Positions 5,834-19,903 of a DNA stretch of 25,834 nt are shown in pieces. The translations under genes and the position numbers were made by a program. The stretch comes from Promethearchaeati archaeon. GTDB lineage: Archaea; Asgardarchaeota; Heimdallarchaeia; JABLTI01. Location: contig JABLTI010000032.1 in NCBI GenBank assembly GCA_013166835.1, positions 1 to 25,834 on the forward strand, in the 5' to 3' direction. The notes below the pieces were generated by a model, which saw nothing but the letters and a program-made list of their open reading frames with translations, made no database searches and had not been told where the DNA came from. Each line of letters starts with the position of its first letter. The stretch's first letter is position 1.

Positions 5834-5983
5834 CGGATAATGAGAAAGTGATTCTCAAAATTATGAGAATGAATTCTGGAGTTTTACTAATGTTTATATT
5901 ATCTAGAATAATAAGTTAAAGTGATTTTGCAAAAATTATGTGTTTGACGTTACTGCATGATCTTAAGATTGGAGTTATTTAAG

Positions 5984-7054
5984 ATGAAAATAAAAAAAGT
6001 ATCGATTCTTAGTCTCATTATTTTAACGAGTAGTTTTTTTGTTCGATTAAACATTAATTCTACAAGTGGCGAGAATTTAGTCTTCACAAGAATGGGACAA
6101 TTTGAGGAGTGTTATTTTGCTTTTGATGTGCAAGTAGTGAATAACATAGCTTACATAGCTGATGCCGGCAATGGTTTCTGGATTCTAAATGTGAGTAATT
6201 CAGCTGAGCCAACAGAATTATCTCATAAACTATTAGGCGGTGTAGAGCATTGTGTATATGTTGAAAATAATATTGCTTTTGTTGCGGATTATAATAATGG
6301 GTTAATAATTTTTGATGTCACTAATCCTTTCAATCCACTACAAATTGGTCAATATACTAATGGAAATGCAATTAGTTTTGTTGATAATGAGAATGATTTA
6401 GCTTGTATAGGAGATCCTTTCCTATCGATACTTAATATTAGTGATTTAGCACTTTCAATAGAAATTTATCGAGATGAAGATTTACCAATTATTGATTTAA
6501 TTATAAAAGAAGACATTCTTTTCTGCTTAGAACTCTTTCAAGGACTGACAATTCTGAATATTAGTAATCCTGCTTTACCTGTGGTAATTGATCAATGGTT
6601 AAGTGCAGGTCCTATGTATCGGGATATTGAGATTCAAGATGATGTTATTTTTATTGCAAGCAATATTGGATTAAAAGCTCTAAATATTAGCGATCTTACA
6701 AATCTCCAAGAGATTGTTTTAGATACAGGTGGTAATGCAGTAAGAAGCTTATATATTTCAAATAATTTACTCTATTTAGTTGAATCTGATGAGAATCTAA
6801 TAGCATTTAACATTACAGACATTGATAACATCGAGAAAGTTGGCCAGTACACAGAGTCTGGAGGAGTTTTAAATTCAGTATTTGTTTCAAATGATGTTAT
6901 TTATACTACTGCACAAAGTGATGGATTAATTATCATTGGAAAAGAATCAAGCACTAACATAAGTGAAATGTATTCAGCTCCATATATTATTGGATTATTT
7001 TGTTTGACTGTGATAAGCACAATTAATTTTATGAAACGAAAGAAGCGTAGGTAA
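5984..7054 (+). CDS. LVIVD-repeat beta-propeller surface protein with C-terminal membrane anchor
   Basis: Signal-like N-terminus; repeats such as AYIADAGNGFWILNVSN, AFVADYNNGLIIFDVTNP, GLTILNISNP; C-terminal hydrophobic helix followed by KRKKRR. Confidence 0.82.
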   Translation: MKIKKVSILSLIILTSSFFVRLNINSTSGENLVFTRMGQFEECYFAFDVQVVNNIAYIADAGNGFWILNVSNSAEPTELSHKLLGGVEHCVYVENNIAFVADYNNGLIIFDVTNPFNPLQIGQYTNGNAISFVDNENDLACIGDPFLSILNISDLALSIEIYRDEDLPIIDLIIKEDILFCLELFQGLTILNISNPALPVVIDQWLSAGPMYRDIEIQDDVIFIASNIGLKALNISDLTNLQEIVLDTGGNAVRSLYISNNLLYLVESDENLIAFNITDIDNIEKVGQYTESGGVLNSVFVSNDVIYTTAQSDGLIIIGKESSTNISEMYSAPYIIGLFCLTVISTINFMKRKKRR

Positions 7055-7130
7055 GGAGTAAATTGAGTAATAAAACGATTGTGAGGTATTTAATTACAGA
7101 AATAAAATTGGTATCATTGTGGGATGAATC

Positions 7131-8231
7131 ATGAAAAAGAAAACTAAGAACCTAATAATTATTGGATTTATTATCTATTATCTGGTATTTTGCAGTTTGG
7201 GGATATTCATTACAAATGAAGATTATTTCGTTACAGCTAGTACAAATGGAGACACCTTATATGTGAATTTCTTAGGAGAGGTGGATATTGGTGTTGGTTA
7301 TAAAATAAGACTGGAAAACGAGAGAGCATATGTTTCTTCTAATAATGGAGTTGAAATAATTGATATTCAAAATCCGACAGCACCTTCGTTAATTGGAACT
7401 TATGATGAGGGAGCAATGGGTTTTGATGTAAAAGATAATATTCTGTTTACTGTGGACGCAAACGGATTAATAGTGGTTAATGCTACCAATGCTAATGCTC
7501 TTGAAGTAATAGGAACTTCAGATACCGGTCAATGGGCATATAATGTGAGATTAAATAACACGTTAGTTTTTGCAATCTCCGAAGGAGATATTGATGTTTA
7601 TGACATAACCGATCTTAACAATCCACTAAGAGTTGGACAATATCTTGATACAGGAAGAGGAAATGACATCATTATCAACGGAGAAACAGCTTATTATGCG
7701 GATCCTGATGAAGGATTAGAAGTAATTAATGTTTCAGATCATACTAATCCAGTGAAGATTCGAACTGTAAGTAATACACATGGAGCTTGGGATCTATGCA
7801 TAAATAATGACCTACTGTATCTTGGTTGTCATGGAGCAGGATTAAGAGTATTAGATATATCAAATCCAACAAATCCCGCGATTATTAAGCAATTTAATGA
7901 CGGAGGGGAAGTCTATGGTGTTTGTGGAAATGACACGTATATTTTTCTTGGAGACCTGCAAGAAGGAGTGGAAGTTTTGAACTATACAAGTTCATACACT
8001 TTACCAGAGATCGCTAGTTATGTAGCAACACCTCATGATATTGATTTTAATGAAAATTTTATCTATTTAGCTGACCAGGATAATGGTTTCATATTATTAG
8101 AATTAAGTCCAACACAAAACACTAACACAGCAGGATCAAATTTGTACTTTGCGTTTCTAATTCTACCGTTATTGGGTGTAAGAATAATCATCCAATTAAA
8201 GCATAGGAGAAAAAATAACACTAAAACTTGA
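7131..8231 (+). CDS. LVIVD-repeat beta-propeller surface protein with C-terminal membrane anchor
   Basis: N-terminal signal/TM; repeats GVEIIDIQNP, GLEVINVSDH, GLRVLDISNP, YLADQDNGFIL; C-terminal TM followed by KHRRKN. Confidence 0.85.
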   Translation: MKKKTKNLIIIGFIIYYLVFCSLGIFITNEDYFVTASTNGDTLYVNFLGEVDIGVGYKIRLENERAYVSSNNGVEIIDIQNPTAPSLIGTYDEGAMGFDVKDNILFTVDANGLIVVNATNANALEVIGTSDTGQWAYNVRLNNTLVFAISEGDIDVYDITDLNNPLRVGQYLDTGRGNDIIINGETAYYADPDEGLEVINVSDHTNPVKIRTVSNTHGAWDLCINNDLLYLGCHGAGLRVLDISNPTNPAIIKQFNDGGEVYGVCGNDTYIFLGDLQEGVEVLNYTSSYTLPEIASYVATPHDIDFNENFIYLADQDNGFILLELSPTQNTNTAGSNLYFAFLILPLLGVRIIIQLKHRRKNNTKT

Positions 8232-8296: not shown

Positions 8297-8620
8297 CTAT
8301 AATGCTTCTTGAAGGATTTTTTGCGAAAGTTCTTCAAGTAAATTATGATCAAGTAAGTCTATGAGTTCTTTTATTTTTTTATTCGATAATTTATACATTT
8401 TTTTGGTGCCATCACGTCGATCAGTTACAATTCCGCTTTCTCTAAGGATTCGAAGGTGCCTTGAAACTAAAGGTTGAATTATAGTTAATTGTTCAACGAT
8501 TTCACAAACACATTTCTCACCATTAGCAAGGAAATCTATGATCTCAAGTCTAATTGGGTCAGCTAATGCTTTGAAGAACTTCGTCTTGATTGATTTTTCA
8601 TTTTGCATTACCGAATTCAT
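8297..8620 (-). CDS. arsR: ArsR/SmtB family transcriptional repressor (CVC metal/metalloid site)
   Basis: FFKALADPIRLEII, GEKCVCEI, QPLVSRHLRILRESGIV winged HTH. Start could also be ATG 8608. Confidence 0.9.
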   Translation of the reverse strand: MNSVMQNEKSIKTKFFKALADPIRLEIIDFLANGEKCVCEIVEQLTIIQPLVSRHLRILRESGIVTDRRDGTKKMYKLSNKKIKELIDLLDHNLLEELSQKILQEAL

Positions 8621-8633
8621 AAGAAAAAGCTAA

Positions 8634-8661
8634 ATATAACAATATTTAAATATTATTATAT
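8634..8661. promoter_or_regulatory. Putative ArsR operator (28-bp inverted repeat) in the divergent promoter
   Basis: atataac-aatatttaaatatt-attatat: perfect 14-bp palindromic core, 13 of 14 arm positions complementary; lies between arsR and the downstream operon. Confidence 0.6.
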
Positions 8662-8705
8662 CGCTCAAGACAATAGACAAGAATTGTAAAGTTCTGAGAG
8701 TTTTT

Positions 8706-9080
8706 ATGATGGCAGAAACAAAAAAAATCGGATTTGCATTATGTGTTTGCACGGGAAAATGCCCAGGATTCGAGAAAATGGATATGTGGGACTTTGTTAA
8801 TAGGGTAAGAATTGAACTTCCTGTTGAATACGCATTCATTCATCCTCAACTATGTGAAGAAGATGGTGACAGATTCTTCGATGATTACTTGAAAGAAGGT
8901 CGGAAATACATGATAGCAGGCTGTGCACCAACAATGCAATATAAATTATTTAGAGATGCGTTTAGTAAAAGAGGATTAGACGTCAAGAAGGATTTAGTGC
9001 CATTGGATATTAGGGACATGACAACAGAAGATGCTTTTCAATTGGTAGAGAAAACACTGAAAGAAATAGGAGCGGAATGA
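8706..9080 (+). CDS. Heterodisulfide reductase subunit A N-terminal-domain-like protein (stand-alone, Cys-rich)
   Basis: KIGFALCVCTGKC...HPQLCEEDG...MIAGCAP...LDIRD resembles the HdrA N-terminal pattern (IGVYVCHCG...YMCS..G...VAACSP...ANIRE); no FAD-binding domain. Confidence 0.65.
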   Translation: MMAETKKIGFALCVCTGKCPGFEKMDMWDFVNRVRIELPVEYAFIHPQLCEEDGDRFFDDYLKEGRKYMIAGCAPTMQYKLFRDAFSKRGLDVKKDLVPLDIRDMTTEDAFQLVEKTLKEIGAE

Positions 9081-9119
9081 AAAATAACCGAAAAATATGA
9101 CTCTAATACTGCAACCTTC

Positions 9120-9389
9120 ATGGGAGTGCCCAGAAAAGAGATCCCATGGTGGCCAACTATAGATTATGAGAAATGCAATTTTTGTATGGACTGCGACAAA
9201 TTTTGTCCCCACAAAGTGTTCGAGAAACAAGAAGATAAGGAAAAGAAGTTAGTTGTAACAAATCAATACAACTGTGTCGTTTTTTGTAGAGCATGTATGA
9301 AGTTATGCGAGCCAGATGCTTTGATCTTTCCTGATAAGAAAGAAATAACATCATTGATTAAAAAAATCCGAAGTGAAAGTAATGACTAA
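9120..9389 (+). CDS. 2x[4Fe-4S] ferredoxin-like protein
   Basis: CNFCMDCDKFCP and CVVFCRACMKLCE motifs; GVPRKEIPWWPTID N-terminus. True start may be upstream (see findings). Confidence 0.85.
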   Translation: MGVPRKEIPWWPTIDYEKCNFCMDCDKFCPHKVFEKQEDKEKKLVVTNQYNCVVFCRACMKLCEPDALIFPDKKEITSLIKKIRSESND

Positions 9390-10245
9390 GAAAATCTCAG
9401 TATTACCATGCTGTGGGATTAATAAAACGCTAGGATTGGTAACAATAGAGATTGGTTTGAAACTCAAGGAATTAGATCACTCGATTGAGTTAATATCACC
9501 GGCTAATTTTAGTGTGGATCAAAAACGATTCCAAGAATTAATCCAAGAATCACAAGTTATAGTTTTTGATGGCTGTGCTACACGTTGTGCAACAAAGCTA
9601 CTTGAAAAAGTGGACTTTACAAAAGTAAAAAGAATTTTTATTCCAGAGGAAAGCAAGAAATATGAAGTTCGCCTTGGGAAAGCCTTGAGACTATCAGATG
9701 AAGGAAAGGAATTCGCAGAGAAAATAGCTAAACAAATCATGGAAGAATTGAAAAAAGAAGCCAAACAGGTCAAACAACCAATAGTAGAACGTGATTTTGG
9801 TAAAATAGATTATTTTGAAATTACTTATGATAAATATCATTTTCGAGTGCCAAAGGAAGGATATTATTTCAGTGAAAACGATTGCTGGGTAAAACAAGAC
9901 GGTGAAAAAGCACTCATAGGGATAACAGATTATCTTCAAAATAAATCAAGTGATATATTGTTTGTTGACTTGCCAGAAATAAACACACAAGTAGTACAAT
10001 TTGATGAAATAGTTAATTTTGAATCAGTAAAAGCAATGCTCTCGTTAATATCTCCAGTATCAGGAGTTGTAAGAGTTATTAATTACAAATTAGAGGATGA
10101 GCCAAATTTGTTAAATGATGATCCATATGAACAAGGATGGACAATCGAAATAACCTTGACGGATTTTGATGAGGATAAAGAGCTGTTAATGGATGGAAAA
10201 ACATATTTCGAGTATATGAAGAAGAAGATAGAAGAAGAACAATAA
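9382..10245 (+). CDS. DGC-domain (putative zinc-binding) protein fused to glycine cleavage H-protein-like lipoyl carrier
   Basis: N-terminal PCCG...VFDGCATRCA. C-terminal YYFSENDCWVK..IGITDYLQ..DILFVDLP..FESVKA..SPVSGVV..N..L..EPNLLNDDPYEQGW, with the lipoyl Lys codon at 10030-10032. Confidence 0.85.
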   Translation: MTKKISVLPCCGINKTLGLVTIEIGLKLKELDHSIELISPANFSVDQKRFQELIQESQVIVFDGCATRCATKLLEKVDFTKVKRIFIPEESKKYEVRLGKALRLSDEGKEFAEKIAKQIMEELKKEAKQVKQPIVERDFGKIDYFEITYDKYHFRVPKEGYYFSENDCWVKQDGEKALIGITDYLQNKSSDILFVDLPEINTQVVQFDEIVNFESVKAMLSLISPVSGVVRVINYKLEDEPNLLNDDPYEQGWTIEITLTDFDEDKELLMDGKTYFEYMKKKIEEEQ

Positions 10246-10259
10246 ATGGTGAAAGATAA

Positions 10260-10667
10260 TTGAGTGAAAAAGTATACATAATACCTTGTAGTGGGATGGG
10301 AAAAGTCTATGGAAGTATTTGTCGGCAAGCAGCCTATAGAGTAGTAAATGACCTTAAACCTGGAGAAACAGAGATTGAATGTTTACCATTAATTGTTAAA
10401 GGGAAAAAAGAACTAGTTGAGAAACTCAAAAAGAACAAAGTAATAACTCTTGATGGGTGCACAGCTATGTGTGCTTATTATGATGTGGCAAAAGTTATTG
10501 ATGAACCAGATGCCCAGTTCTTATCAACTTCTATAATAAAGGATAATCGTGAATTAAAACCTGAACCGACTATTTACCCCTTAGGTGAAAATGCTAAAGC
10601 AATAATGGAAATTTTTGCAAAAGAAATTGCTGAGAAAGTAGGTGAATTGCTAGATGGAGAAGAATAA
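10260..10667 (+). CDS. DGC-domain putative zinc-binding protein
   Basis: IIPCSGMGK...ECLP...ITLDGCTAMCA; TTG start after GGTGA RBS. Confidence 0.8.
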   Translation: MSEKVYIIPCSGMGKVYGSICRQAAYRVVNDLKPGETEIECLPLIVKGKKELVEKLKKNKVITLDGCTAMCAYYDVAKVIDEPDAQFLSTSIIKDNRELKPEPTIYPLGENAKAIMEIFAKEIAEKVGELLDGEE

Positions 10668-11100
10668 ATTAATTTTAACAACCAAACCTAAAATTGGTTT
10701 AATTGCATGTAGTGGTGAAAAATTAGTAGAAGGAACAATAACTCGAGTTGCAACAAGAATTGTAGTAGAAAAACTAAGACCACAGATAACAACTATTCTT
10801 TGTCAACCACTCTTTATGGCAGGAGATATAAAACACAAGGGCGGAGGAAAGGAGAGGGAATTTGCCAAAATACACAAAACAATTACTGTAGAAGGCTGCG
10901 GAGATGATTGTGCGAAGATTGCTGTTGAGAGATATAGTGCTCCTGCTGCTGCAACAATTTATGTTCAAGATATTATGAAAAAATATCCCCAATTAAAACC
11001 AATATCCAAAGAAGAGCTCGATGAAGATGGCATGAAACTTGCAGAGATAGTTGCAGAGGAAATAGCAACTACCATTGATGAATTATATAATTCTCAATAA
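10654..11100 (+). CDS. DGC-domain putative zinc-binding protein
   Basis: LIACSGE...LCQP...ITVEGCGDDCA; overlaps the previous gene by 14 bp. Confidence 0.8.
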   Translation: MEKNKLILTTKPKIGLIACSGEKLVEGTITRVATRIVVEKLRPQITTILCQPLFMAGDIKHKGGGKEREFAKIHKTITVEGCGDDCAKIAVERYSAPAAATIYVQDIMKKYPQLKPISKEELDEDGMKLAEIVAEEIATTIDELYNSQ

Positions 11101-11151: not shown

Positions 11152-12540
11152 CTACTTCTTTGTTTTCTCATCTTCTTCTTTCTTGATTACTTTCGAAAAC
11201 ATTCGTATGAGAAACTTATCAGATTGAGCGAAAAATCGTTTCCTAAAGGAAGAAAACCACATTAAAGGTTTCAGGATAAAACTGAAATCTCCAAAAAATA
11301 TCTTTGGCCAATCAAATAATTTATGCTTTTTATAATATGAATAATCTTGTGGAAAGACAACTTGGTAGGTGTGAATTAGATCCCTAAAAACCTTGTGCCC
11401 TCCAACGCCCAAGAAGGTTTTAGGACGAGTATACTTGCCATGTTCAATACCCCAAAGTATACCATCAATGACATTTTGAATCAAAGTAGTTATCTGTTTT
11501 GAATCAGTATATTCATCTGTAACTATACCTACTAGATTTGCCCGACCAACTTCTGGCATAGCTTCTATTGCTTCTCGTAAAATTGGCATTTGCTTTAGTG
11601 GACCTGAAACGAAGAATGCATGTTGTTGTCCCATAAAAACTGGACGGTGACCATTAAAGAAAGACCTGTCTTGAAATATTTTCACTCCAGATGAAAGATA
11701 TCTATCTTGAGTTTTGTAGGCGTAAACAACAGCATCTACTTCAACAGTATATTTTTTGAAGATTGCATTATGCTCATCAGGATAAAAGCAAATATTCTCT
11801 GAAGCACAGTTCAAGCAACCCAAACACCCTCCTTTGATGTTGGCATTGTTAATATTAACAACCGTAACTTCACAGGGCATTAATTTAACGAATGTGTCAA
11901 TCATATTGTTTAAGCTTACATCAGATTCTGAAGCATCTGTTAAGACAGAAATTTTGTGTTTCTTAGTTTTTGGTTGAACTTTAATTTTTGAAGGATTATA
12001 AACGGGATAATCAAAAGTTAGAGGTAAACAAACCTTTGCTGACTCTAATTTATTTTCACATTGAATAAAGAACTGAATCGCGAAATTCTGAAGACGTTTT
12101 CGCTCTTTCTTTTTTAGTAACTCCATCATTTCAGCGGAGTATCCTCGAAAATAATTCATCCCAAAATCTTCTGAAATAGCATGTATGTAATTATGAGCTA
12201 GGTGATCGTAAAATTTCCCACTAGTTGAAATGCTTGTAGCGTTTTTCCCCTTAAAATAGTTGAGCTTCTTGCGTTCAAAAACAAGTTCAATAAATCGTTT
12301 CAATTGTGAAGGCACAGATAGTATATATACTGGATAAATCCAAATGACTCCATCTGCTGCTTTAATATCTTTTAAAATTAAATCAAAATACTCTTGATCC
12401 TTTTCGATTTTCTTGATTTTTCTTCCGATATGATGGACCTTATACTTATGCATTGGAAAATTAGCTTCTATGTATCTCAAATATTGATATGTAACGCTTT
12501 TGGTTTCTCTTGGACTGCCATTCAAAATTACAAGCTTCAT
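11152..12540 (-). CDS. Tandem flavodoxin-like NAD(P)H-dependent oxidoreductase with Isf-type Fe-S motif
   Basis: N-terminal LNGSPR...ADGVIWIYPVY..SVPSQLKRFIE; second flavodoxin domain with CLGCLNCASENIC (CxxCxxCx5C). Confidence 0.78.
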   Translation of the reverse strand: MKLVILNGSPRETKSVTYQYLRYIEANFPMHKYKVHHIGRKIKKIEKDQEYFDLILKDIKAADGVIWIYPVYILSVPSQLKRFIELVFERKKLNYFKGKNATSISTSGKFYDHLAHNYIHAISEDFGMNYFRGYSAEMMELLKKKERKRLQNFAIQFFIQCENKLESAKVCLPLTFDYPVYNPSKIKVQPKTKKHKISVLTDASESDVSLNNMIDTFVKLMPCEVTVVNINNANIKGGCLGCLNCASENICFYPDEHNAIFKKYTVEVDAVVYAYKTQDRYLSSGVKIFQDRSFFNGHRPVFMGQQHAFFVSGPLKQMPILREAIEAMPEVGRANLVGIVTDEYTDSKQITTLIQNVIDGILWGIEHGKYTRPKTFLGVGGHKVFRDLIHTYQVVFPQDYSYYKKHKLFDWPKIFFGDFSFILKPLMWFSSFRKRFFAQSDKFLIRMFSKVIKKEEDEKTKK

Positions 12541-14999: not shown

Positions 15000-15806
15000 T
15001 CAAAGAATTTCTTGCAATAATGTTGCTTCTCTTAGATGATTAACGAATTCTTGAGTAAATCGGGCAGCAGGAGCTCCATCAATTAAATCATGATCAAAGG
15101 AAATAGTCAAATGTAAATACTCTCTTTCTACGATTTCTCCTTCAATTTTAGTCAAATGTTTCTTTATCCCGCCAATCGAGAGATTTATTGTAGTTAAACC
15201 ACCAAAACCACTAATCCAACCAGGTATATCTACAAACATCCCAACTGATGTGATTACAATCAAACCACCATTTCTTTTAATAGTAAATGGATTGTTGATG
15301 TATCTTCTCATTAGTATTTTCCGTAGAAATTTTGGTAAGAAATAATAATACTTCGCTCTATTATCTTGGTCTAAAAGTTGATCTTTTTCAGAAACACTTT
15401 TTGATTGAGCCTTTCTAATCTCTTTAGAAATATCGATTAAACTTTTATTTTGTGATCTTCTAACTGAATGAGCAATAGGAACCATTTTATTACGAATTTC
15501 ACGCTCTACCATTATTATAATATCTATGTCCTCAAAAACTATTATTTTGTTTTTCCCCTTTCTAAATGAGTTAAAACGTGGGTAATCCTCAATTACTTTA
15601 GATAAGCTTTTTGCAATCCAAGAAGTAAATGAAATTTTCAATCCATTTTCCTTTTCATATTTTTTAATTAAACGTCTTCCTTTAGTTACATCAACCTCAA
15701 TATAGCCTGTCATATAATGTTTTTTAAGAAAAAAATCATAGGTTTCTGAAAGTAATCGCCTATTTTGTGAAAATCTCTTCACTTCGTAATTACCAATATT
15801 GTCCAT
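15000..15806 (-). CDS. 2-oxoacid dehydrogenase E2-type acyltransferase, catalytic domain only
   Basis: EVDVT, SFTSWIAK..S..I..YPRFNS, ITSVGM, LTISFDHDLIDGAPAARF (catalytic His/Asp); no lipoyl or subunit-binding domain. Confidence 0.85.
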   Translation of the reverse strand: MDNIGNYEVKRFSQNRRLLSETYDFFLKKHYMTGYIEVDVTKGRRLIKKYEKENGLKISFTSWIAKSLSKVIEDYPRFNSFRKGKNKIIVFEDIDIIIMVEREIRNKMVPIAHSVRRSQNKSLIDISKEIRKAQSKSVSEKDQLLDQDNRAKYYYFLPKFLRKILMRRYINNPFTIKRNGGLIVITSVGMFVDIPGWISGFGGLTTINLSIGGIKKHLTKIEGEIVEREYLHLTISFDHDLIDGAPAARFTQEFVNHLREATLLQEIL

Positions 15807-18238: not shown

Positions 18239-18529
18239 TTGTTGACTCCAACTGTATGCCTCGTAGTAATCCCTTTGTTTGTTCCTGGTTTTGACGTGGT
18301 AAAGCCATCTCTTTCCCTTTGCTGATAAGTGATTGGGATTTTCTCTGACCTCAATCACTTTATCTTCCATTCTTTTTTTTCTGTTCTTATTTTCTTACAA
18401 CAAAACTCTGATTTCTTTTCTAAGAAAAGGTTGCAGATAAGGAGAAAGTGATATTAGCTCTTCTATTTAGAAAAGCTTTAATTCTTAATCTGAGATATCA
18501 TTTCGATTAAATCCGGGTTGTGTGTAGTG

Positions 18530-19903
18530 ATGAGTGAGAAGAGTGGTATTTACAAGACAATAAAGAATCCCCCAATTATTAAAGTGGTTTCGCCACTGCA
18601 AAGATTCATTGAAAAAGAAGCTACCAGTAGTAAAATACTCTTAGTGTGCATTTTGTTGGGGCTTATTTGGGCGAACATTCCTTGGGGAAACACCTACGAA
18701 GCGTTCTGGAATGTAACAGTGGGAATTCAGTTTTGGAACATTAATATTACTCAACCGTTAATCTGGTGGATAAATGATGGCTTAATGACCATATTCTTCT
18801 TTGTAATTGGGTTAGAGTTGAAAAGAGAGATATTGGTCGGAGGTTTAAATGACAAAAAGGACGCTCTTTTCGCTGTTCTTACCGGGATAAGTGGGATGAT
18901 TGTTCCGATAATCTTCTTCATGTTCATCAATTACCCTCGATTTGACTCATTTAAGGGATGGAGTATTCCAATCTCAACAGATATAGCTATTGCTTTAGGT
19001 ATTCTCTCACTGTTCAGTTATAATATACCGAAAAAGATTAGGCTCATCCTAACCTCTATGGCGATCATTGATGATATTGGTTCAATAATCATTATCTCAA
19101 TACTCCACTCACACTCGATTAATTGACTCTTCTTCGGACTCAGCTTTGTAGTTATTGGGATCTTAGTTGTATTCAATTTGGTGGGAATAAGGAATCCATT
19201 GTTCTTTGTTTTTCCAGGGATTATTCTCTGGTTCTTCATTTTAAGCTCAGGTGTACACGCAACAATAGCAGGAGTAATCGTTGCTGCAATAATTCCAGCA
19301 ACCAAGAGAATTGATTTACGCGATTTCTTCGAGATTGGGAAGAAGTCATTGAACGATATTGCCGAGCTCGAATTAGATCCTGACGAAGTGTCTTGTTACA
19401 ATAGAGTCGTTGCTCAAGTCTATGCCTTGGAAAAGGGATTCCAAAACATACGAACACCACTAAATATAATTGAGCATAAACTCATTGGTTGGGTAGCTTA
19501 CTTAATCGTACCTATATTCACAATAGCGAATTCCGGGATTAATTTCTTCACTCTGGGAACGAATCCCTTTACCAGTAGACTTTTCTGGGGAATAATACTT
19601 GGTCTCGTATTGGGAAAGCCAATTGGAGTGATGGTAGTAACGCTGATAGGCATAAAAACAAAACTTTTTGTTAAACCAGATAACGTGAATTGGTATCACA
19701 TATATGGCATGTCATTTCTACGAGGGATTGGTTTTACTATGTCCATCTTTTTAGCTGGTATAACGTTTTATTCGGATTTAGAACAACTCTCAATAGCGAA
19801 AATAGCTGTTTTGTTTGGTTCAGTGATTTCAGGCATCACTGCTTTTGTGTTATTAAAAATATCAGTGAAAAAAATAAGAAGTGAAAGAAAAACAGGGGTA
19901 TAA
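18530..19903 (+). pseudogene. nhaA: Na+/H+ antiporter NhaA interrupted by one in-frame TGA (19124-19126)
   Basis: WINDGLM..FFFVIGLELKRE, TDIA, AIIDD, SGVHATIAGV, GLVLGKPIG, GIGFTMSIF, AKIAVL. Both ORF halves are in the same frame, joined by SIN*LFFGLSFVVIGILVVFNLVG. Confidence 0.85.

Follow-up and report, generated by a model that had tools for sequence, protein, structure and literature searches.

The 25.8-kb stretch of archaeal DNA analysed here, referred to below as the window, is one contig (C47, ~32% GC) of a 3.56-Mb Promethearchaeati genome assembled in 260 contigs and ~85% complete. It carries a 2.4-kb cassette of five plus-strand genes that diverge from a minus-strand gene for an ArsR-type regulator (8297-8620, 107 aa; HTH_5, 9.5e-19). 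In order of transcription these encode orf2 (8706-9080, 124 aa), a homologue of the N-terminal Fe-S domain of HdrA (HdrA-N); a ferredoxin of the 2x[4Fe-4S] type (9120-9389 as called, 89 aa, or 9084-9389 if an ATA codon is used as the start); a fusion of a DGC domain with a GcvH-like lipoyl carrier domain (9373-10245, 290 aa); and two more DGC proteins, DGC2 (10260-10667, 135 aa; Pfam DGC 1.5e-14) and DGC3 (10654-11100, 148 aa; Pfam DGC 8.8e-10). The start of the fusion gene overlaps the stop of the ferredoxin gene, DGC2 and DGC3 overlap by 14 nt, and the remaining gaps measure 14-39 nt. The 85-bp spacer between the ArsR gene and orf2 contains a 28-bp imperfect palindrome (8634-8661), a candidate ArsR operator. 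An earlier note on this DNA had already described the six genes, their packing and their divergence from an ArsR with a CVC site, and the open reading frame (ORF) map and Pfam place all of them where it had put them. Its list of absences also holds: Pfam scans of 36 window ORFs (those of at least 90 aa without a longer overlapping ORF, the 5'-end ORF 3-395 excepted) returned no GcvP, GcvT or GcvL, no HdrB/C (CCG), no FAD-type HdrA and no Acr3/ArsB or ArsC, and likewise no sulfur-oxidation genes, DsrE, TusA, sirtuin or macrodomain. No lipoate-protein ligase gene lies in the window.

The same gene set is found far beyond this genome. We assembled 88 related loci, 8 from genomes (found via the fusion) and 80 from metagenomes (found via orf2, and taken as the best 80 of 549 matches), which fall into 72 groups at 95% nucleotide identity. 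Each of the 54 loci with at least 2.5 kb of sequence past orf2 has all five parts, the ferredoxin and the H domain included, so the arrangement is far beyond chance; the earlier note had made its proposal depend on the genes keeping company elsewhere, and they do. The H domain is fused in 52 of these 54 loci, and 51 show the gene order of the window, with three or four DGC domains downstream. In three loci (L025, L039 and L046) two DGC genes lie upstream instead. Over all loci there are three (L066, L083 and L093) in which the fusion is replaced by three separate DGC genes, with a separate H gene seen in L083 and L093; L066 ends before that position. In 65 of the 88 loci (52 of the 72 groups) the cassette has an ArsR gene nearby, and in 36 of the 72 loci with more than 700 bp upstream that gene is directly divergent. 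The GC content of the related loci ranges from 28 to 66%, and the window orf2 is 69-77% identical to proteins whose sources are labelled Eremiobacterota, Armatimonadota, Acidobacteria, Actinobacteria and Desulfotomaculaceae; this spread and these names fit the range of archaea and anaerobic bacteria that the note had envisaged. Three more distant Asgard loci, with orf2 proteins 52-56% identical, keep both the cassette and the ArsR gene. Within the Asgard archaea the distribution is patchy (63 of 400 genomes, 28 of 85 genera), and a tblastn search of 72,556 plasmid records with orf2 and DGC2 gave no match. Taken together, these data leave us highly confident that the locus represents a conserved, ArsR-linked and horizontally spread redox cassette that has its own lipoyl carrier and is separate from glycine cleavage.

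The lipoyl carrier is the C-terminal part of the fusion protein, with the DGC domain at residues 10-98 (Pfam, 7.8e-12) and the GCV_H domain at residues 165-284 (PF01597, 2.3e-31); the protein stored in the database (P0001) has 287 aa, which fits a start at ATG 9382. Among 160 relatives of the fusion, both domains are present in 118 of the 120 listed. Alignments of the cassette proteins were made from subsets picked at less than 80% identity (24 of 54 fusions, 19 of 24 picked DGC2, 19 of 24 picked DGC3 and 22 of 23 picked ferredoxin sequences), the rows left out being near-duplicates of the window and extra or upstream copies. The putative lipoyl site reads E217-S-V-K220 (motif ESVKA); all 25 aligned fusion sequences have K220 and E217, and C68 and C72 of the DGC motif are likewise invariant. 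Lipoylation of the fused H domain is plausible, since the lipoyl lysine is invariant, a lipoate-protein ligase gene accompanies 15 of the 88 loci and the genome itself has two LplA-like genes.

The relation of this domain to glycine cleavage can be judged within the genome, which has three GCV_H matches: the canonical gcvH, a third paralogue and the cassette fusion. The canonical gene is followed by gcvPA and gcvPB on contig C227, with gcvT on contig C115, and its product passes both GcvH equivalog models (133.2 on TIGR00527, 162.1 on NF002270), whereas the window fusion stays below both cut-offs (108.8 vs 115.85 and 108.2 vs 117, respectively). In a tree built with 28 cassette H domains (25 fused, 3 unfused), 24 standalone Asgard GcvH proteins and the third paralogue, the cassette domains form a clade (support 96/91) apart from the standalone proteins (96/92). 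This tree was built from the genome loci, since the search for short H-domain relatives had given only 4 proteins, and its standalone GcvH proteins are Asgard sequences only, without bacterial GcvH, LbpA or the relatives' copies of the third paralogue. The third paralogue (L008, contig C6, 546-1010, 154 aa) scores below the GcvH cut-offs and has copies in relatives. Its branch in the tree is very long, and its gene adjoins tiaS at a distance of ~4 kb from glyA.

A cassette with a GcvH-like carrier and a ferredoxin could instead serve as a ferredoxin-linked redox partner of glycine cleavage or glycine synthase, replacing the NAD-dependent L-protein in anaerobes. The best lipoamide-dehydrogenase match of the genome (312 bits) indeed falls below its cut-off of 408.8, and in its HMM scores the cassette H domain stands close to true GcvH, because some cassette copies pass the cut-offs: the unfused copy of L083 reaches 123.6 against 115.85, and the fused copy of L060 passes NF002270 (117.3 vs 117) while failing TIGR00527 (112.3). 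However, the genome's canonical H-protein has its own gcvPA/gcvPB cluster, no gcvP or gcvT occurs among the annotated neighbour clusters of the related loci (which were not searched directly for these genes), and control by ArsR together with ars neighbours would not suit a part of central metabolism. The cassette is also patchy within the genus of the window, where all 11 genomes keep a canonical GcvH: the ~290-aa fusion is present in all 8 genomes with orf2 and missing in the 3 without it. We therefore regard a role in glycine metabolism as very improbable. The earlier note had asked whether the fused domain might be the only GcvH of the genome, clustering with canonical proteins and supporting glycine cleavage; a separate gcvH-gcvPA-gcvPB set with gcvT, and a clade of its own for the cassette domain, were found instead, and by gene content and phylogeny the cassette is separate from glycine cleavage.

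The first gene, orf2, has no match in Pfam or NCBIfam. A phmmer search of all PDB sequences retrieved HdrA only (7bkb_A, residues 7-93, E 0.013), with four aligned cysteines that include a CxC pair, a middle cysteine and the cysteine of a G-C-x-P motif. The AlphaFold2 (AF2) model, made from 18 homologues, has a pLDDT of 87.4, and Foldseek ranks 1-7 for this model are all HdrA chains (E 5.8e-5 to 5.6e-4; TM-score on the query ~0.62-0.66). Since the PDB sequence match and the top structural ranks agree, the model and the alignment identify orf2 as a free-standing homologue of the HdrA N-terminal Fe-S domain. The "mini-HdrA domain" of the earlier note thus holds for this N-terminal domain and not for the rest of HdrA: with 124 aa in a single domain, orf2 has neither the FAD-binding thioredoxin-reductase domain nor the ferredoxin domains. 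Five cysteines are invariant in the family (C13, C15, C19, C50 and C73). In HdrA the cluster of the N-terminal domain lies on the path to free ferredoxin and takes one cysteine ligand from a partner subunit (PMC9012536). By analogy, the extra cysteine of orf2 could complete the cluster within one chain, in place of the ligand from the partner.

The orf2 family is large but tight and consists almost entirely of small proteins. It comprises 1344 protein clusters at 90% identity, and a profile search of 1.84 billion representatives gave 129 relatives (representatives clustered at 50% identity; E up to 0.001), nearly all of them small; only three long proteins matched the profile across their N-terminal domain, with E >1e-4. 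A search of the ESM Atlas with orf2 returned its own family only, labelled 'hypothetical' or 'HdrA-like'. One Asgard genome of 1.4 Mb carries, of the whole set, just orf2, the ferredoxin and a CVC-type ArsR (locus L127, 5412-6769). These genes adjoin one for a rubrerythrin/ferritin-like protein, and DGC and H domains are missing. Because this locus carries the pair without the other parts, its gene content suggests that orf2 and the ferredoxin form a sub-module able to work alone.

The ferredoxin passes the Pfam cut-offs of Fer4_10 and Fer4 and also matches Fer4_7, and its eight invariant cysteines (23 sequences aligned) make up two four-cysteine cluster motifs. Its start codon appears to have changed in this lineage. 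In the region 9078-9120, the reading frame is in frame with orf2 and follows the orf2 TGA stop, and the 13 codons before ATG 9120 match a conserved N-terminal extension of other ferredoxins; where they differ from close relatives, most of the changes are synonymous. L011 and L013 have the ancestral ATG, which is ATA (9084) in the window and in four relatives. This near-cognate ATA is, on the aligned sequences, the likeliest start of the ferredoxin. Read-through of the orf2 stop with selenocysteine is unlikely because the stop in L012 is TAA; a use of selenocysteine at the conserved cysteines was considered as well and dropped, no in-frame TGA being aligned with a cysteine in 92 loci.

The three DGC domains of the window score 45.6, 54.4 and 39.0 bits against the Pfam PF08859 cut-off of 27. 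DGC2 and DGC3 are clear paralogues (hhalign probability 99.9%), and each has four invariant cysteines in 20 aligned sequences: C10, C41, C67 and C71 in DGC2, and C19, C50, C82 and C86 in DGC3. The domain in the fusion, DGC1, differs within the lineage of the window, which has a Cys-Cys pair after strand 1 (residues 12-13, 9406-9411) and a serine where most relatives have the cysteine of a C-P-V motif (residues 42-44, 9496-9504). This displaced cysteine, confined to one lineage, hints that a fourth thiol matters. DGC2 is modelled by AF2 (pLDDT 93.6) as an alpha/beta domain of flavodoxin-like fold, in which cysteines follow strands 1, 2 and 3. Foldseek, VIA-align and a profile search of PDB sequences disclosed no specific structural relative: the best VIA-align hit, among generic flavodoxin-like folds, is an uncharacterised Wolinella protein (3pu6_A, Z 8.8, rmsd 3.0, 112 residues aligned), and the DGC profile found nothing below E 0.6 among PDB sequences. 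A fold of the ArsC/LMW-phosphatase type was rejected, a chain of a Trx-ArsC complex appearing only at Foldseek rank 13 (E 0.049). The AF2 models of orf2 and DGC2 are alike in topology, with cysteines after strands 1, 2 and 3 in both; a common origin of the two families was considered and dropped, the hhalign probability for the two alignments being 0.2%. A complex prediction that took the fusion, the ferredoxin and orf2, orf2 being the partner, gave no answer (score 0.00) and speaks neither for nor against an assembly.

The regulator, a winged-helix protein of the ArsR/SmtB family, passes the metalloregulator model NF033788 with 94.7 bits (cut-off 55). Its only two cysteines form the pair C37-V-C39 in the region of the DNA-binding helix, where classical ArsR proteins have their As(III) site, and a CxC motif is present in 63 of the 65 cassette-linked ArsR proteins, as CVC in 44. 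The palindrome at 8634-8661 consists of two 14-nt arms, 93% complementary and without a gap; its core is the same in all 8 aligned relatives, in contrast to the variable flanks, and it is the sole site within 6 mismatches in the 3.56-Mb genome. These features make it a candidate ArsR operator. A scan for bacterial-type promoters and terminators, a type of scan ill-suited to an archaeon, gave nothing above the shuffled level, and the 14 sequencing runs in which this stretch is seen are all sediment-metagenome DNA, with no RNA run among them; 5 of the 14 may be the very source of the sequence.

Regulators of the ArsR/SmtB family include sensors of Zn and Cd, and the cassette might accordingly be a buffering or chaperone module for such metals, with the DGC domains providing four-cysteine sites for soft metals and the regulator sensing the metal. 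The four invariant cysteines in each of DGC2 and DGC3 would suit this role, and the proteins are named 'putative zinc-binding protein' in the database. The window ArsR, however, has no N-terminal cysteine and no second histidine for an alpha-5 metal site, and no Zn/Cd efflux pump is found among the annotated representatives of the recurring neighbour clusters, other clusters being unannotated. Moreover, a metal module leaves the ferredoxin, the HdrA-N-like protein and the lipoyl carrier, constant in 54 of 54 loci, unexplained. We consider this explanation quite unlikely, if somewhat less so than a part in glycine metabolism.

The neighbours of the related loci point to arsenic more strongly than the window does, and the arsenic connection of the earlier note is strengthened by them. 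Acr3, a representative of which clears the equivalog cut-off of TIGR00832, is encoded near the cassette in 22 of the 88 loci, LMWP-type ArsC in 9 and the ArsP_1 permease in 6, and at least one of the three occurs in 29 loci (25 of the 72 groups; 10 of the 26 loci with long flanks). An MTH895/ArsE-type small thioredoxin (Trx3) that passes the cut-off of that family is present in 12 loci, and in bacterial relatives ArsP and Trx3 lie directly upstream of orf2. A 97-aa protein with an invariant P-x3-C-x-C motif is encoded beside ArsR, just past its gene, in 29 of the 88 loci (L033, 3902-4195, and 28 others); it matches no family of Pfam or NCBIfam, and the window does not encode it. In the sulfate reducer Pseudodesulfovibrio mercurii ND132, an ArsR5-ArsP-ArsE-DGC operon is up-regulated by As(III) and As(V), according to the text of a preprint report (10.1101/2022.10.17.512643).

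Other recurring neighbours belong to thiol and disulfide chemistry and invite a broader reading. They include DsbD/CcdA-type membrane proteins (16 of 88 loci), DUF166 proteins (15 of 88), thioredoxins (7 of 88) and rhodanese-like proteins (5 loci), and with Trx3 they resemble NCBIfam families of selenoprotein and thiol systems (TsoB, DfsP). The cassette could thus be a general stress module for thiols, disulfides and sulfane sulfur, in which the ArsR-type protein senses persulfide, polysulfide, an oxidant or another thiol-reactive compound and sulfur species travel on, or are reduced by, the lipoyl arm and the DGC cysteines, the ars genes being merely frequent neighbours in thiol-stress islands. 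LbpA, a lipoyl carrier that works with Hdr-like proteins in the sHdr system, provides a parallel and a precedent (PMC6067878). The regulator also scores on the BigR and TsoR models, but with 64.2 and 62.8 bits it is far below their cut-offs of 155 and 115. Persulfide sensors of the BigR/SqrR type use a separated pair of cysteines, whereas the only cysteines of the window ArsR are the CVC pair. In addition, the window has no HdrB/C, DsrE, TusA or sulfur-oxidation genes, and the transport and reductase genes that recur beside the cassette are the arsenic-specific Acr3, ArsC and ArsP. On balance a general sulfur or thiol function seems unlikely to us, although better placed than one in metal buffering.

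We favour the view that the cassette is an accessory operon of arsenic islands, an As(III)-derepressed and ferredoxin-driven module of lipoyl and cysteine dithiols, and judge the chances that this is correct to be about even; the view is drawn from the CVC site of the regulator and from the neighbour genes, not from an assay. In such a module, As(III) or Sb(III) would bind the CVC site, ArsR would leave the 28-bp palindrome and the five genes would be expressed. The ferredoxin and the HdrA-N-like [4Fe-4S] protein orf2 would carry low-potential electrons to the DGC cysteine sites and to the lipoyl disulfide on the fused GcvH domain, holding them as dithiols. These dithiols might capture trivalent arsenicals or reduce pentavalent or thiolated ones, and the products would pass to Acr3 or ArsP pumps, whose genes lie close to the cassette in other organisms and at another place in this genome. 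The earlier note had proposed a stress-induced module in which a lipoylated carrier and three DGC domains bind or shuttle a metalloid, metal or sulfane sulfur and are re-reduced through the ferredoxin and the HdrA-like protein. Its parts list stands, as a conserved, ArsR-linked set of lipoyl carrier, three DGC domains, ferredoxin and HdrA-N-like protein, while its chemistry is something that we, too, infer.

Several points weigh against the arsenic reading. Lipoylation, Fe-S content, arsenic binding and the direction of electron flow are all steps that we infer from the sequences, and a CVC motif is by itself no proof of arsenic sensing. The scans of the 36 window ORFs found no ars pump or reductase, and 59 of the 88 loci have no Acr3, ArsC or ArsP in the available DNA, many of the contigs being short. 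The Acr3 gene of this genome, on contig C143, has no ars neighbours and no palindrome upstream, as follows from the lack of a second palindrome copy in the genome. The four DGC cysteines could be purely structural, and the Pfam entry treats DGC as a likely zinc site. The evidence from P. mercurii concerns a single DGC gene in another arrangement, and the text of that report serves here without the fold change of that gene. The locus counts share ancestry and are not independent, and they are conditional on a close orf2 relative because the best 80 of 549 matches were taken. Finally, the cassette H domains of L083 and L060 that pass GcvH models, mentioned above, narrow the distance to ordinary H-proteins.

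A bolder version of the arsenic hypothesis would make the cassette the first metalloid resistance based on lipoic acid. In it, a ferredoxin-powered complex of the ferredoxin, the free HdrA-N-type protein and the three DGC domains would keep a dedicated lipoyl arm reduced, and the DGC cysteines would represent a new arsenic-binding or thiol-relay fold. With these thiols, anaerobes would trap arsenicals in the trivalent state or reduce those that are pentavalent, methylated or thiolated, and gene transfer would have carried the cassette between the Asgard archaea and bacteria of several phyla. We offer this only tentatively, as a possibility that is more doubtful than the accessory role itself and not as remote as the alternatives discussed above.

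No description of the cassette was found in the literature searched, where PF08859 is named in one paper only, subscription journals being outside its scope, in keeping with the impression of the earlier note that the combination is not a recognised pathway. We place it among the accessory thiol-redox modules of ars islands and among the lipoyl-carrier systems that work outside glycine cleavage. With classical ars operons it shares a CVC-type ArsR divergent from the operon and ars genes in the vicinity (the 29 loci above). However, its five proteins include no pump, no ArsD and no reductase of a known kind, and the ars operons in the literature searched do not include a lipoyl carrier or Fe-S carriers, both of which the cassette has. 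The P. mercurii operon is similar in having an arsenic-induced DGC gene under ArsR together with ArsP and an ArsE-type thioredoxin; compared by its description, it has a single DGC gene, and the text of the report mentions no lipoyl carrier, ferredoxin or HdrA-N-like protein (10.1101/2022.10.17.512643).

Among lipoyl-carrier systems, sHdr-LbpA is alike in using a GcvH-like carrier outside glycine cleavage that is encoded with Hdr-related Fe-S proteins, and a lipoate-protein ligase gene is present in 15 of the 88 cassette loci but not in the window. In contrast to that system (PMC6067878), the cassette lacks the HdrB/C (CCG) subunits, the FAD-binding HdrA core and sulfur-transfer proteins, and has instead three DGC domains, an ArsR and arsenic-gene neighbours. 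The stress operons in which GcvH-L accompanies SirTM and macrodomain proteins (PMC12440151, PMC11490716) likewise employ an extra GcvH paralogue in stress defence, but the window has no sirtuin or macrodomain and the partners are entirely different. For orf2, the closest known relative is the N-terminal domain of HdrA and, more distantly, MvhD, which it resembles in fold and in four aligned cysteine positions; it differs from HdrA in standing alone as a 124-aa protein and in its fifth invariant cysteine. In function, the role proposed for orf2 recalls ferredoxin:thioredoxin reductase, in which a [4Fe-4S] protein reduces a disulfide with electrons from ferredoxin. This likeness is purely functional, and no kinship of sequence or fold is claimed.

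Arsenite and methylarsenite poison cells largely through binding to the dithiol of lipoyl enzymes. If the arsenic hypothesis is true, an operon with its own lipoyl carrier and low-potential Fe-S partners would have turned this target into a defence, which would be a new kind of resistance mechanism should the lipoyl-arsenic chemistry hold. GcvH-like carriers would then have a third role beside glycine cleavage and sHdr sulfur oxidation, and the DGC domain and the stand-alone HdrA-N-like family would each gain a first function. The cassette may also matter for arsenic cycling in anoxic sediments, the home of its carriers. Small (2.4 kb) and mapped down to single residues, it lends itself to direct tests by expression and biochemical work.

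The remainder of the window holds several other genes. Convergent with the cassette is a minus-strand gene (11152-12540) for a 462-aa protein that begins with an NADPH-dependent FMN reductase/flavodoxin-like domain and continues in a long C-terminal part with a GGCLGCLNC motif; besides the window, L009 and L010, its closest relatives, are the only loci that keep it next to the cassette. At 15000-15806, also on the minus strand and 4 kb from a spare lipoyl carrier, lies the gene for a 268-aa protein whose sole match is to the catalytic domain of 2-oxoacid dehydrogenase acyltransferases (E2), with no lipoyl domain seen. An NhaA-type Na+/H+ antiporter is split into two ORFs (18518-19126 and 19178-19903; Pfam profile positions 2-174 and 195-374), the split being a frameshift, an interruption or an assembly error. 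Upstream of the cassette, the region 5957-8231 encodes a pair of paralogues with beta-propeller-like repeats and a membrane anchor at the C-terminus, related copies of which are present on more than 30 contigs of the genome (tblastn).

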